Assembly: GCF_002854065.1 (NCBI RefSeq)
Contig: NZ_CP024147.1
Reading direction: 5' to 3' (one strand)
Source: Escherichia coli
Lineage (GTDB): Bacteria; Pseudomonadota; Gammaproteobacteria; Enterobacterales; Enterobacteriaceae
DNA: 64,000 nt
Shown here piece by piece: positions 5,039 through 53,379 of the stretch. Each line of letters starts with the position of its first letter. The first letter of the stretch is position 1. Made by a program: the position numbers and the translations under genes. The notes beneath the pieces were generated by a model. That model had not been told where the DNA came from and searched no databases. It worked only from the letters and a program-made list of their open reading frames with translations.

Positions 5039-5824
5039 ATGTTGCAGGTGACAAGCGAACAATGGCTATCCTGGTTAAGCCTGTACTTCTGGCCGTTACT
5101 GCGCGTGCTGGCGCTGATCTCCACCGCACCAATTCTGAGCGAACGCAGCGTGCCGAAACGGGTAAAACTGGGGCTGGCAATGATGATCACGTTCGCCATT
5201 GCCCCATCATTACCTGCCAACGATGTTCCTGTTTTTTCGTTCTTTGCTCTGTGGCTGGCCGTACAGCAGATCCTGATCGGTATTGCGCTTGGTTTTACCA
5301 TGCAATTTGCCTTTGCCGCTGTGCGAACCGCTGGCGAAATTATCGGTCTGCAAATGGGGCTGTCATTTGCGACATTTGTCGATCCGGCCAGCCATCTTAA
5401 TATGCCCGTTTTAGCGCGTATCATGGATATGCTGGCGTTACTGCTGTTCCTGACATTTAACGGTCATTTATGGTTGATTTCACTGCTAGTCGATACCTTT
5501 CACACCCTGCCGATTGGTGGCGAACCGTTGAACAGCAATGCGTTTCTGGCACTCACCAAAGCAGGGAGTTTGATTTTCCTTAACGGGCTGATGCTGGCAT
5601 TACCGCTCATTACTCTGCTGCTGACCCTGAATCTGGCATTAGGCTTACTTAATCGTATGGCCCCGCAATTATCCATTTTTGTTATTGGATTTCCATTAAC
5701 TCTGACTGTCGGTATCTCTTTAATGGCGGCATTAATGCCGTTAATTGCGCCTTTTTGCGAACATTTATTCAGTGAAATTTTTAATTTGCTGGCTGATATT
5801 ATTAGTGAATTGCCATTAATATAA
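5039..5824 (+). CDS. fliR: Flagellar export apparatus protein FliR
   Basis: Internal ATG ([11 protein letters not shown]…) gives the 261 aa FliR; the ORF track start at 4952 overlaps fliQ and is rejected. Confidence 0.9.
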
Positions 5825-46121: not shown

Positions 46122-47054
46122 TTAAAACATCTGTCTTGAACCAGAACTAATTTGCACAGGCATTCCCGATCGACGTTGCAACGCAGCATTTGCGCGATTT
46201 ACATCAACTTCTTGCCCGTTGATAAACGCCCGCAAAGATGGGGTTACCGGCAATGGCACTTTTCGGTCAGACTCATATTCTGCACGATTGCGCGACAACG
46301 GCTCATGAACTTCCAGCCAGTTCGAGCCATCTGGTTCAGTGGTGTATTTTACTGGCTGGTCGATAATTTGCACACGCGTCCCAACAGGAACATTATCAAA
46401 CAGATATTTGATATCGTCATTGCGCAGACGAATACAGCCCTGACTTACCCGGAGCCCAATACCAAAATTGGCATTGGTACCATGGATGGCATACAACCTG
46501 CCAATATAAATCGCGTACAGCCCCATGGGATTATCGGGGCCCGCAGGAACAAATGCGGGCAAACTCTCCCCTCGTTTCGCATATTCGCGCCGAGTGTTCG
46601 GCGTTGGCGTCCAGGTTGGAGCTTCTTGTTTACGTTCAACGGTAGTCACCCAGTTACGCGGGGTTTCTCGCCCAGCCTGGCCGATACCAATAGGAAAGAC
46701 TTCCACAGTATTACTGTCTGGTGGGTAGTAATAAAGACGCATCTCAGCGACGTTAACAACAATCCCTTTACGAACAGTGTCGGGCAAAATCAGTTGCTGC
46801 GGAATGGTGAGTTGCGAGCCAGACTTCGGCAAAAAAACATCAGCGCCCGGGTTCGCTTCCAGCATGTTACTTAACCCTTGCCCGTATTGTGCGGCAAAAG
46901 TCTCCAGCGGCTGGGTATTGTGATCAGGAACAGTTACAGTAAACGACTGCCCCACTAAACGGCTACCCTCTGGAGGTAATGGATAAGTTACCGCCAGGCT
47001 AGTATGGCTGGCAAAAAGCAGAGCAAATGAGCAAAGAATATTTACACGACGCAT
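46122..47054 (-). CDS. ldtA: L,D-transpeptidase LdtA (ErfK)
   Basis: About 310 aa with signal peptide and YkuD-type catalytic domain, recognised as ErfK/LdtA. Confidence 0.85.
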
Positions 47055-47118
47055 CATGTCCCTTTCCTATGTCGCGAAAGCTATCCGTTAAGTATAGCTT
47101 TTATCAGACTTTTCGTTT

Positions 47119-48198
47119 TTAACTGTTCAAATCAGAAGTCGTATTCCCCGGTAGAACAATATTACTGGCAGCAAGTTCGCCCATGTTGTTGTATATCGCA
47201 CAGGCAGCTTCGATGATGGGCATCGCCAGAGCTGCGCCACTCCCCTCACCTAAACGCATCTCCATATTGAGATAAGGCTCCAGCCCCAAATGCGAGAGCG
47301 CTATACGCGCGCCTTTTTCTGCCGACAGGTGAGAAGGAATGAGATACGGTTTTATCGCAGGAGACATCTGGCAGGCTGCGAGCGCAGCAGCATAAGAAAG
47401 AAATCCATCCAGCAACACGGGTAAACCGCAGGAAGCAGCACCTAACATCACTCCAGCTATTCCGACCAAATCAAATCCACCCACTTTTGCCAGGACATCA
47501 ACACCATCCTGAGGATTTGGTTGATTCAACGTAATCGCCCGACGCACAACATCAATTTTATTAGCCAGTTTATCTGTCGGCAGGTTTGCGCCAATCCCAA
47601 CCACTTCTTCAGGATCCCGGCCAGTGATTGTGCTGACTATTGCTGCTGCCGGTGTCGTGTTTGCCATCCCCAGTTCACCTACACCAAACAGCGTGACACC
47701 GTTTTTTGCCAGCTCCTGCGTATAACATATGACGTCCAAAAGCAACTTTTCAGCCTGACGGCGACTCATTGCCGGAGCTGAAGCAATATTGCTGCTACCT
47801 CGTGCGACACGCATGTTGATAAGCCCGGGGATAGGCTCAGCAGTATCAATACCAACATCAATTACGTGGACGTTAGCGCCCGCTTGTTCTGCCAGCACAC
47901 ACACGCCGGTTGTTCCACGGGTCATATTTTCAGCCTGTATGGCTGTCACTTCTTTTGGAGAAATAGCGACCCCTTCCTCCCAGACGCCGTGATCGGCACA
48001 CATAACCAGTACCGCTTTTTTGCCCACATGCGGTATGCCATTCAACCCCGGCATTCCTGCCAGTTGTATGGCAAGCACCTCCAGCTTTCCCAGGCTACCA
48101 ACAGGTTTGAGTAACCCGTCAATATGCCGTTGTGCACGCGACATAGCGGTAGAATCGATGGCTGGGATCGTATTCAGTAAATCGGCAAGTATTTGCAT
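47119..48198 (-). CDS. cobT: Nicotinate-nucleotide:dimethylbenzimidazole phosphoribosyltransferase CobT
   Basis: 359 aa ORF recognised as CobT. Confidence 0.9.
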
Positions 48199-48209
48199 CT
48201 CACGTCTCT

Positions 48210-48953
48210 TTATAGCAGTGCCAGCAGGAAGACCAGTTCACCAAGCTCTATGGCTGCTCCCAGCGTATCGCCCGTTTGCCCGCCCAGCGTACGTTTGAGA
48301 AGCTGACCGAGGATGAAAATCGCCACCATCGTCACCACCATAGCAGCCACACCATGCATACCCGGCAATAATACGGCAGCAAAAATAGCGGCTAAGCCGA
48401 GTGTGACGCAGGTTTGTCGCCCATCAATTTTGCCAATGAACACATTGCCAAGCCCTTCTTCCCGCGCATAACGATGACGATACATCAATAATGCGGCAGT
48501 CCCGCGGCTGACCGCACATGCTGCCGCCAGCGATGCAAGGATCGATTCGCCACGCAGAGCCAACTCGCTTAACACCAGAATCTTTGCCAGTACCACAAAA
48601 ATCAATGCCAGACCGCCGTGGGTGCCTAAACGGCTATCACGCATGATTTCCAACATGCGATCGCGGCTACGTGCAGAAAATACGCCATCACAGGTATCAG
48701 CGAGGCCGTCCAGATGGAATCCCCCGGTCATCAGCACCAGCACAAGTACGCTAAACAGTGCCGCCAGTGGTGCGCCACACCATGCCTGCAGCACCATGAA
48801 GACCAGCCCGCTAATCGCGCCAAGCAATAATCCAATCAAAGGAAAAGTAATAATACCGCGAGAATAATGCTCGAAATCCAGTCCCTGGGACCAGCGACGC
48901 GGTACAGGCAGACGCGTAATAAATGAGAGCATCGCCCAAAATAATTTACTCAT
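48210..48953 (-). CDS. cobS: Cobalamin-5'-phosphate synthase CobS
   Basis: 247 aa from internal ATG ([18 protein letters not shown]…); overlaps the cobU stop by 4 bp. Confidence 0.9.
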
Positions 48954-49495
48954 TTGATTTTTACTCCAATACCCGAAACCACCAGCCATACTTCATTTGC
49001 CGCAGCGGCCAACTGCTGATTTACCCGCCCGGCAATATCACGAAAATGTCGTGCCAGACGACTCTCCGGCACAATCCCCATTCCCACTTCGTTAGTCACT
49101 AATACAACCTTTGCGGGGCAACGTTGGCAGGCAGCAATCAACGACTGAATCTCAGCATTAATCGCCTGTTCCATCGCCTGATAATCCCATTCATCAGGGT
49201 CTTTATCGCCGCCATAATCAAACAACAGATTAGTCACCATTGTGGTAACGCATTCAAGCAACACAACCTCATTCGGGTTAATGTCTGCATGAATTAATTC
49301 ATCAAGATGTTGCCAGCGCTCCACTGTGCGCCAGTGCTCCGGGCGGCCTTGCCGATGATGTTCTATCCGTGCAGCCATCTCATCATCAAGGATTTGCGAG
49401 GTAGCGATATACAGAACCTGTGAAGAGTCCCCAATAAGCGCCTCTGCGTGGCGACTCTTCCCGCTCCGTGCGCCCCCCGTCACCAAAATCATCAT
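48950..49495 (-). CDS. cobU: Adenosylcobinamide kinase / adenosylcobinamide-phosphate guanylyltransferase CobU
   Basis: 181 aa ORF with P-loop GGARSGKS. Confidence 0.9.
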
Positions 49496-50520
49496 ACCGA
49501 CTCCTGATTCAAATGTATGATGGTATTCATTGAACAGAACAATGGATCCCCCACCGTTGCTGACCGCAAAACATTTACGCGATTAATACTGCGCGTAATA
49601 TAATTAAAAATCCAGCATTCTCAATCCATTACGAAATAAGATGGCATTACGGAATAGCCAGACTTTCTCGTGTTAACGTCCGACAAAATGCGTCATTGAC
49701 AGCGGTTTCTGTGGATTGACACATTTCATTCAGATAATGAATTAATGCTACTGCCGGAACAACCAGCAAACGGGCATTGTGTTCTGAAATCCAGGCTATT
49801 GATTCAACGTCAGCGACAGATCTGCGCTGTAAAAGAACTTGTAAAACAACGTAATAGAATTATCCGGAATGGTGGCGACTATGCACTAGAACACCACAAT
49901 TTCGCTCTCTCGGTAAGGCACTGTCACAGCATTCAACAGAATGTGACTTGCCAGATTTATTAGCGCCACCAGATGTTTAACCGGGTAACCACGACCCAGT
50001 CGGGGATATATTCCATCTTCTCGCTGACATCATCAAGAATAAAAAGGTTTATCACACTCAGAGCAACGTTCTTCAGCAGGCGGGATAATTCTTCAACATT
50101 TAGAAGATGTGTTATTAAAGGCATACAAACTGGACGTATTGTATTTTCTTTTGGTGGTTGACCTAAGGTAGCAGTTTATCCTGATGCGCTGAGATTTCTG
50201 TAATATCTACGTCAACATTCTCCTCGAATAGAAAATGCAGCCCCGGCAAGTGATTCACATTTTTTAACAAAACGTTGTTAGCGTGCCATTTTCAGAAGCT
50301 CTCCAAGAAAGCGAATTCTTTTCTCAAATTCTGCATTCTCAGACACAGCTTTCTACTCCATGGTAATGGCCCAAATACGAAGTTGCTCAGGATCATTAGT
50401 GGTGCTGAGAAGTTAAATAACCATGCGGAGTACCACTCGTCATCACGTATTTATATATCATGAAGCTATTGTTGTGTTTTGTACATCAGTAGATATATTC
50501 TGATATACTCCTTTTGCTAG

Positions 50521-51715
<1,195 letters not shown>

Positions 51716-51819
51716 CTAATTTCGATAGGTTCTCAGATGAGAATGATGACGGTGATACACAGATAAGAATCAATGAGCAATGAGGGTTGCCGGGCAACCC
51801 TCATTGAATAAAACAGGAA

Positions 51820-52149
51820 TTACTTCGCTTCGCCGTTTTTCATTTCGCCCATAGCTTTCAGCTTTTTGGAGATATCGCGGCGTTCTTTGGAGAGCTCGGC
51901 ATTTTTGATGATGTAATCGTCAACGCGATCTTCATAGTCACCTTTCATGCTGGCGATGATGCCCTGGATTGCTTCAACGCTCATCCCGGGCTTGATGTAA
52001 TCGCTCAGGTTGTCCAGCAACAGGACGCGCTTCTGGTTGTCACGGATCTTTTTCTCAACGTCCTGAATTTCACGTTGCAGTTTGTTCTTACGACGGAACA
52101 GACGAACAAATTCCAGTACGTCCTGGAATGAAGGCTTGGTAGTTTCCAT
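51820..52149 (-). CDS. yeeX: UPF0265 / DUF496 protein YeeX
   Basis: 109 aa from [30 protein letters not shown]…. Confidence 0.85.
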
Positions 52150-52320
52150 TTTTATACCCCTGATAATGTGAGAGTCGGATTCGTTTAAGCAACCGCTATT
52201 CGTTAGGGCCAACATTACTCATAGCTGCCGCAGATGACAATGCTTTTATCCCTTTTCACTATCATACCCTTTATCCTTGCTGAATCGAAGCAGCAGCAAG
52301 ATGATTCTGAAGTTCAGGAA

Positions 52321-53379
52321 TTATTTGCGCAAGGCCCGGCAAATCAGATTCGATAGCAACTCAAGCTGATGTGCCGTTTCCATGTTCAGCCACACATAAC
52401 CATAGATTGGTGTTTCCACAACCTTCAGGTCATGGTGGTTATTCAGCAACTGACGCAGCTCTTCCACAGCATCGTTCAATTTTTCCGTATTGGCAAAAAC
52501 CGGCTGCGGATTACCTTCGTACAGCGCATGAACAAGGCTCAGCAGTATTTGCTGCATCATGTGCTGGGTATCACGAAGTTTTTGCGCGTTCAATAACACG
52601 AAATGGCTGGGGCGCGTGGCCCAGTATGCATTGATTTGCAACTCCAGCATACAAACCAGATTGCGGTTAATGGTCTGGATACCTTCATATATCGATTTTG
52701 GAATTCGAGTTTCTTTGCTGGCGGGCGCAATCAGCCCACGCATTTTCACGGCATCGGTCAGGAGTTTTTGTAGATGGCTTTCCAGACGTGGGCGTTCGAG
52801 TAAGTTTGGTGAGAATGCAGATTGATAAACCCGATTATACTCGGTCAGACTTTTCGCCAGTTGAATGCGCCAGTGGATGAACGCCCGTTGTGGCCAGATA
52901 CCGGTAAACAACATTGCCAGTAAAGAGCCGAGGATCACATCGCCGCTTCGCCATAACGCCGTATCAATTTCACCTGTCGGGGAACCCACAACAATTGCCA
53001 GCGTCACCCCAATCAATAATCCTTGATACGGTTTCTTGCCCAGTGCCAGCCAACCGCAAAGAAACATAGCCGCCGCGCACCAGACTAACATCAGCGGTAA
53101 CGAAATTAACTCCAGTTGCAGAGCGATAAGACCTAAAATCGAACCCAACACCGTACCGCCAATACGTTCGAAGGCGCGAGGAACAACGTTACCCCAGAAC
53201 GAGATTGGCCCCATAATCACCACCATGGTGACCAGCGGCCAGGTGCTTTCAGGGATAGTAAACAGGCGGATAATGAGAAAAGTGAGCAGGAATGCCAGCG
53301 CGACCCGAGTACCATGCACAATGCGGTAATGGCGGTATACCCGGATTTCAAACGGGCTTAATGACTTATCGGCACGCAC
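52321..53379 (-). CDS. yeeA: Inner membrane protein YeeA (FUSC-like putative transporter)
   Basis: 352 aa polytopic membrane ORF recognised as YeeA. Confidence 0.85.
   Translation of the reverse strand: MRADKSLSPFEIRVYRHYRIVHGTRVALAFLLTFLIIRLFTIPESTWPLVTMVVIMGPISFWGNVVPRAFERIGGTVLGSILGLIALQLELISLPLMLVWCAAAMFLCGWLALGKKPYQGLLIGVTLAIVVGSPTGEIDTALWRSGDVILGSLLAMLFTGIWPQRAFIHWRIQLAKSLTEYNRVYQSAFSPNLLERPRLESHLQKLLTDAVKMRGLIAPASKETRIPKSIYEGIQTINRNLVCMLELQINAYWATRPSHFVLLNAQKLRDTQHMMQQILLSLVHALYEGNPQPVFANTEKLNDAVEELRQLLNNHHDLKVVETPIYGYVWLNMETAHQLELLSNLICRALRK

Follow-up and report, generated by a model that had tools for sequence, protein, structure and literature searches.

What occupies the kilobase upstream of cobU? 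In the window, the 64,000-nt stretch of Escherichia coli DNA analyzed here, cobU starts at 49495 on the minus strand, and an IS5 begins at 50521 with the terminal repeat GGAAGGTGCG. The 1025 nt between them, 49496-50520, were described in an initial annotation as about 1 kb of AT-rich DNA without a convincing coding sequence. Both parts of this description agree with our measurements. The GC content of the interval is 0.408 (40.8%), compared to 0.518 (51.8%) in cobUST and 0.487 in the whole window. The ORFs in it are 34-72 aa long; the three largest on the plus strand have 72, 62 and 62 aa, and the largest on the minus strand has 54 aa. From stop to stop, the longest frame spans 87 codons, compared to 80 ± 18 codons in mononucleotide shuffles, of which 30% equaled or exceeded the observed value. 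The frame length is within the range of the shuffles, and the ORFs are therefore at chance level. A Pfam search of all six frames of the interval with stops masked found no match.

Our analysis indicates that the interval is very probably a non-coding evolutionary scar made of relics of four minus-strand genes, and that its sole likely present function is to provide the promoter and leader of cobUST. The relics are as follows.

49496-49700 (upper limit approximate, 49695-49715), minus strand: 3' end of cbiP in a decayed state, roughly its final 60 codons, from collinear nucleotide alignment.
49701-49798, minus strand: fragment of cbiG, N-terminal part, about 33 codons, from tblastn and a PGAP pseudogene at 49647-49790.
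49799-49987, minus strand: internal fragment of an IS4-family transposase gene, 189 nt, 63 codons with one stop, from homology and PGAP.
49981-50424, minus strand: 5' third of the tnpC gene of an IS66-family element, comprising codons 1-151 and several in-frame stops, from tblastn.
50425-50520, minus strand: relic of the 3' end of an IS66-family tnpB and the tnpB-tnpC spacer, from nucleotide matches overlapping plasmid tnpB.

The relics adjoin each other and leave no gap in the kilobase unexplained. A degraded remnant of an earlier neighbor had been proposed for the interval, and the cbiP, cbiG, IS4-family and IS66-family relics support that proposal.

The same DNA is present in E. coli K-12. 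The interval is 100% identical in nucleotide sequence to MG1655 over all 1025 nt, on both sides of the K-12 IS5H, which is inserted at window-equivalent 49886-49889. Two pseudogenes are annotated there in K-12.

Window 49799-49885: yeeH (b4639), K-12 pseudogene.
Window 49892-50424: yoeG (b4640), K-12 pseudogene.

The cobU-yoeG region of K-12 shares with the window identical relics and the sequence of the cobUST promoter. However, the CP4-44 island, with flu, cbtA/cbeA and others, is complete in K-12, whereas the window lacks an IS5 at 49886-49889, has one at 50521 instead, and has lost the island. PGAP annotation of other genomes has two pseudogenes here, a partial ‘cobalamin biosynthesis protein’ at 49647-49790 and a partial ‘IS4 family transposase’ at 49799-49987. 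In a megablast search, some part of the interval was found in 5403 of 5426 complete E. coli genomes, and at least 80% of it in 3160 of the 5426, nearly always as one copy per chromosome.

The initial annotation had called for a similarity search of the interval and had named alignment to a well-annotated intergenic region or pseudogene without transcription as the outcome that would count against it. The interval does align with annotated pseudogenes of reference genomes; the finding is therefore an ordinary one, though not a wrong one. The region is already known, being annotated in reference genomes with its promoter catalogued, and a false lead is thereby cleared: the ‘empty’ kilobase consists of annotated pseudogene fragments and a catalogued promoter. 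The fine breakdown into a cbiG'::cbiP' fusion and two IS fragments may be unwritten anywhere, yet it is an expected kind of result. Our search of the literature on yoeG and yeeH found use of the locus name and no functional study. In the engineering of K-12, the locus is in use as a neutral site for integration (bioRxiv 10.64898/2026.06.05.730297).

The relic closest to cobU was analyzed by comparison with cobU loci from 80 species. In Citrobacter, Salmonella, Klebsiella and many further genera in this set, cbiP ends at or over the start of cobU. The window aligns collinearly over about 190 columns with the 3' ends of cbiP from four genera, Citrobacter, Salmonella and Klebsiella among them. 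Blocks in this alignment include CGTAA.GG, CTGGAT, TACGCGCAGTAT.AA, ACCATCAT and GGAG.C.GTATGATG. The blastn homology to Citrobacter, Salmonella and Klebsiella extends 30 nt beyond the start of cobU. At the protein level, residues 465-489 of Citrobacter CbiP match the window in tblastn with an E value of 0.012 in a tiny search space. An HMM of the CbiP C-terminus matches at the collinear position with E values of 0.0007-0.014 in four Escherichia lineages and 0.12 in a fifth (L082). The assignment to cbiP comes mainly from collinearity and the nucleotide alignment, the protein-level signal being weak alone.

Both the homology and the synteny in the window are those of a cbiP 3' end that abuts or overlaps the start of cobU, and an intact CbiP (cobyric acid synthase, an ORF of about 506 aa with catalytic domains) is absent from it. 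The relic carries stops, frameshifts and a 10-nt insertion. It forms the present 5' leader of cobU, including the cobU Shine-Dalgarno sequence AGGAG. The cob operon of Salmonella, Citrobacter and Klebsiella (cbiA-P, cobUST) has the same overlap of the cbiP 3' end with the start of cobU, alignable with the window base by base. Unlike that operon, the window retains no more of cbiP than about 60 decayed codons and no more of cbiG than about 33. It contains no intact cbi gene, and therefore corrin-ring synthesis is not possible.

The cbiG relic was identified through longer relatives. An ORF of 144-154 aa is located directly upstream of cobU in L005, a divergent genome labeled E. coli, and in L007, E. 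whittamii. The 144-aa ORF of L005 matches the window in tblastn with 43% identity (E value 1e-14). It also matches positions 1-126 of the 351 in NCBIfam NF004463 (cobalt-precorrin-5A hydrolase, CbiG), with an E value of 6.9e-23. Its score of 81 bits is below the family cut-off of 546, and the ORF is not a full-length CbiG (about 351 aa); homology of the window to the CbiG N-terminus is established via this ortholog. Pfam searches of the 144-aa Escherichia ORF and of a 47-aa fragment found no match. Homologs of the 144-aa ORF in a large protein database are confined to Escherichia and Shigella, and where named they are called, for example, ‘cobalamin biosynthesis protein’.

The tail of the 144-aa ORF aligns to cbiP. 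The ORF begins as CbiG and ends in cbiP sequence, which identifies it as a cbiG'::cbiP' fusion that a deletion has left behind. The window retains just the last 33 or so CbiG codons of this fusion, and its nucleotide homology to other Escherichia lineages stops at 49785-49798. The cbiG/cbiP junction is placed at about 49695-49715 by nucleotide alignment and is ambiguous by protein alignments alone. The cbiP relic is closer to cobU than the cbiG part of the PGAP fragment, and it also supplies the tail of the fusion ORF.

A different assignment of the PGAP ‘cobalamin biosynthesis protein’ fragment, as the C-terminus of CbiP, was considered and rejected. The C-termini of CbiP from about 60 genera end differently, and the full-length ortholog of the fragment is a CbiG N-terminus.

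The cobU-distal part of the interval is derived from transposase genes. The IS4 relic aligns with residues 178-240 of a 440-aa IS4-family ORF on plasmid pEC404/03-1 (L090), with 75% amino acid identity (E value 2e-26) and 79% nucleotide identity, and it matches NCBIfam NF033592 with an E value of 1.3e-4. It has sharp breaks at 49799 and 49987. The homology is that of an IS4-family transposase; a full DDE transposase and the ends of the element are missing. The IS66 relic was identified with the TnpC of pESBL3171-IncF (L085), residues 1-151 of 511, which match the window in tblastn with 47% identity over 152 aa (E value 3e-26). Its nucleotide identity to IS66-family elements on plasmids is about 72% and runs on into the tail of tnpB, where the match of the TnpB C-terminus in the window is weak (E value 0.032). 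In MEI4BO-21 (L004), homology to the L085 element runs 19 nt further than the junction in the window. No match to tnpA was found in the window, and there is no complete tnpA-tnpB-tnpC set with an uninterrupted transposase gene. Compared to the plasmid IS66- and IS4-family elements, the window has nothing but fragments; these contain in-frame stops and lack DDE catalytic regions and identifiable element ends.

Could one of the short ORFs encode a genuine small protein? Two were considered, the 54-aa ORF on the minus strand (49960-50124) and the 72-aa ORF on the plus strand (49745-49963). Both are intact in the window, and the former is a CDS in some PGAP annotations, as the ‘hypothetical protein’ WP_001128468.1. 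However, the 54-aa ORF is in frame with residues ~100-151 of the IS66 TnpC, and the stops that bound it interrupt that alignment. The 72-aa ORF runs antisense to the IS4 relic; judged by eye, a similar open frame is also found in antisense direction in the intact L090 element. In K-12, the 72-aa ORF is broken by IS5H with no known consequence. The chance-level lengths and the lack of a family match also speak against a protein, which we consider highly improbable for either ORF.

The segment 49799-50520 could instead be a functional end of a CP4-44-type island, such as an attachment site or a transposase regulatory region needed for mobility. It is present wherever the island haplotype is present, and the K-12 annotation places the left boundary of the cryptic prophage CP4-44 inside the interval, at window-equivalent ~49751. 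However, this segment is built from transposase fragments of two unrelated IS families, cut short and riddled with stops. Moreover, the island is gone from the window while the segment stays, and its loss is explained by IS5 and not by site-specific excision. A functional island end is exceedingly improbable, and we regard the segment as debris.

How did relics of such different origins come together? The Escherichia ancestor had a gene order of the Salmonella/Citrobacter type, with pocR, a B12 riboswitch and the cbi genes followed by cobUST. The cbiG'::cbiP' fusion directly upstream of cobU then arose by a deletion that extended from around codon 120 of cbiG to around codon 455 of cbiP. In cryptic Escherichia lineages and E. 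whittamii, the fusion can still be read as one open frame of 144 aa. Debris of mobile elements replaced everything after about codon 85 of cbiG' in the main E. coli haplotype. This debris comprises the internal fragment of the IS4-family transposase gene abutting the 5' third of the IS66-family tnpC, and forms the left edge of the CP4-44-type island.

L005 and L007 share with the window the same fusion relic and 81-86% nucleotide identity from cobU to ~49785. They keep the open 144-154-aa frame, the riboswitch, pocR, pduF and pduA/B, whereas the window has IS debris instead. The gene order in these two genomes is pduB, pduA, pduF, pocR, a cobalamin riboswitch (111 bits), cbiG'::cbiP' and cobUST. 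At 4047-6546 of L005, and also in L007, pocR, the riboswitch (5050-5224), the open 144-aa fusion ORF and cobUST are found, and cbiA-F are absent. Between pduF and pocR, on the minus strand at 3903-3986 of L005, there is a match to the Rfam small RNA STnc230 with 68 bits, above the gathering score.

At least three E. coli haplotypes exist beyond the L005/L007 form. One is the full debris form found in the window. The other two lack the island. In H7 (L088 20001-20870), a 119-aa cbiG' ORF abuts a fragment of pduV next to tmaR; the 836 genomes of the 90-95% identity band probably share this form. In the last (L089 3001-3460), 188 nt upstream of cobU are joined straight to pduV', next to tmaR. This set of haplotypes in E. 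coli and Escherichia shows that loss of the cbi genes came first and loss of pdu followed, by independent deletions. The relics provide base-level evidence that cbi was lost by an internal deletion of a Salmonella-type operon and pdu later in separate events.

The haplotype of the window also showed an uneven divergence from other strains. Between window 46122-50520 and the corresponding DNA of ABU 83972 and ATCC 11775 (L091, L001), cobS, cobU and the relic differ by 0-1%, compared to 8-10% at third-codon positions of ldtA. The contrast points to a recent recombinational spread of the cobSU-relic haplotype, which may have hitch-hiked with the island next to it.

The interval had also been proposed to contain the promoter region of cobUST. 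Two promoter-like sites are found in it.

49624-49597, minus strand: sigma-70 promoter-like site TTGAGA-16-TATATT, 10 of 12 consensus matches in a consensus scan.
50485-50457, minus strand: second promoter-like site TGTACA-17-CATGAT, upstream of the dead tnpC (yoeG), read in the window sequence.

The sequence of the first is the one given for cobUST as a constitutive RpoD (sigma-70) promoter from genomic SELEX with the RpoD holoenzyme (Shimada et al., 2014; PMC3946193), in line with the proposal. Based on the consensus match and the published in vitro RNA-polymerase binding, TTGAGA-16-TATATT is the probable cobUST promoter. Transcription would start near 49590, giving a leader of about 95 nt. 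The position of this promoter (49597-49624) is useful to engineers who integrate at the locus.

The promoter-like site is located within the cbiP relic. Its -35 hexamer is invariant in five Escherichia lineages. Conservation of the segment that bears it across Escherichia is just mildly above that of the neighboring relic, and because the gradient is mild we do not claim strong purifying selection. AT-enriching decay of cbiP codons of the GGG CTG GCG CCG CTG GAT type could have made the promoter hexamers. The second site, TGTACA-17-CATGAT, is given for yoeG as a constitutive RpoD promoter in the same study (Shimada et al., 2014; PMC3946193), and it could drive transcription across the relics toward cobU. 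Most likely, the ~130 nt nearest to cobU serve as promoter and leader for cobUST transcription, and the remaining ~800 nt would be inert debris.

A structured regulatory RNA would give the region a different role, either as a residual B12 riboswitch or leader for cobUST or as an independent small RNA. In related Escherichia lineages, a cobalamin riboswitch does precede the cbiG' relic, and two RNA-polymerase binding regions have been reported in the K-12 spacer (PMC3946193). However, the homology to the lineages with the riboswitch ends at ~49798, well short of the place where it would be expected. A search of window 48500-52500 against Rfam families, with E values up to 1, found only a chance match to a eukaryotic IRES inside IS5. 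No cobalamin riboswitch (RF00174) was found in that range, and the L005 riboswitch served as the positive control with its 111 bits. Such an RNA is thus very unlikely. The cobUST genes would now be transcribed from TTGAGA-16-TATATT in the decayed cbiP without riboswitch control.

At the other end of the interval, an IS5-associated rearrangement had been suspected. The junction has the following features.

50517-50520: CTAG, left flank of IS5 and deletion junction; in L004 the sequence continues past CTAG uninterrupted.
50521-51715, minus strand: IS5, 1195 bp, with an intact 326-aa transposase ORF.
51716-51719: CTAA, right flank of IS5, unlike the left flank; the IS5 of L004 has CTAA on both sides.

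MEI4BO-21 (L004) has an IS5 at the same place next to tmaR, without a single mismatch to that of the window in 1195 positions, and there it is surrounded by a perfect CTAA/CTAA duplication. A simple insertion would leave an identical 4-bp target-site duplication; in the window, the flanks are CTAG and CTAA. Beyond CTAG, L004 has 6579 bp that are missing from the window, with further IS relics, yeeS, yeeT, cbeA, cbtA, yeeW and a pduV fragment. From the unequal flanks and the 6579 bp present in L004 but not in the window, we conclude that the window is the product of an IS5-associated adjacent deletion, as had been suspected. Compared to IS-mediated adjacent deletions in general, the window likewise keeps one original flank, CTAA, and has CTAG, a new site of the YTAR type, as the other; the 6579 bp in between are gone and the IS copy is identical.

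We infer that an IS5 at the stop codon of pduV', next to tmaR, caused the 6579-bp deletion in the lineage of this strain. This IS5 may have transposed intramolecularly into CTAG at 50517-50520, or it may have recombined with a second IS5 copy at that site. Either event would have removed the island and placed IS5 against the IS66 relic. The junction in the window is common to just 2 of the 5426 complete genomes. The relics are much older than the IS5 event because they are found in thousands of genomes without this junction. By position, CTAA at 51716-51719 matches the place where the pduV fragment of H7 (L088) has its stop codon; if so, the window retains no pdu sequence.

With middling confidence, we propose that the promoter and leader of cobUST arose from decayed cbiP after a riboswitch-controlled cob operon was dismantled, and that living lineages keep successive stages of this process. 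The first stage would be pdu, pocR, the riboswitch, cbiG'::cbiP' and cobUST. In the second, cbiG' is joined to pduV'. In the third, IS debris and the island lie between them, and the fourth is the IS5-trimmed form in the window. If true, the locus provides a datable, stepwise record of the change from a regulated 20-gene operon to a constitutive 3-gene salvage operon. The evidence from the relics fits a loss scenario that was reportedly put forward by Lawrence and Roth in the 1990s.

A separate case was observed in Escherichia sp. MOD1-EC7003, which has two cobU loci. One (L029) is Klebsiella-like, with 81% identity and an intact cbiP upstream. At the native Escherichia-type locus (L082), cobU matches only residues 55-181. 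It looks as if a complete cob operon has been re-acquired in this strain while the native copy is decaying.
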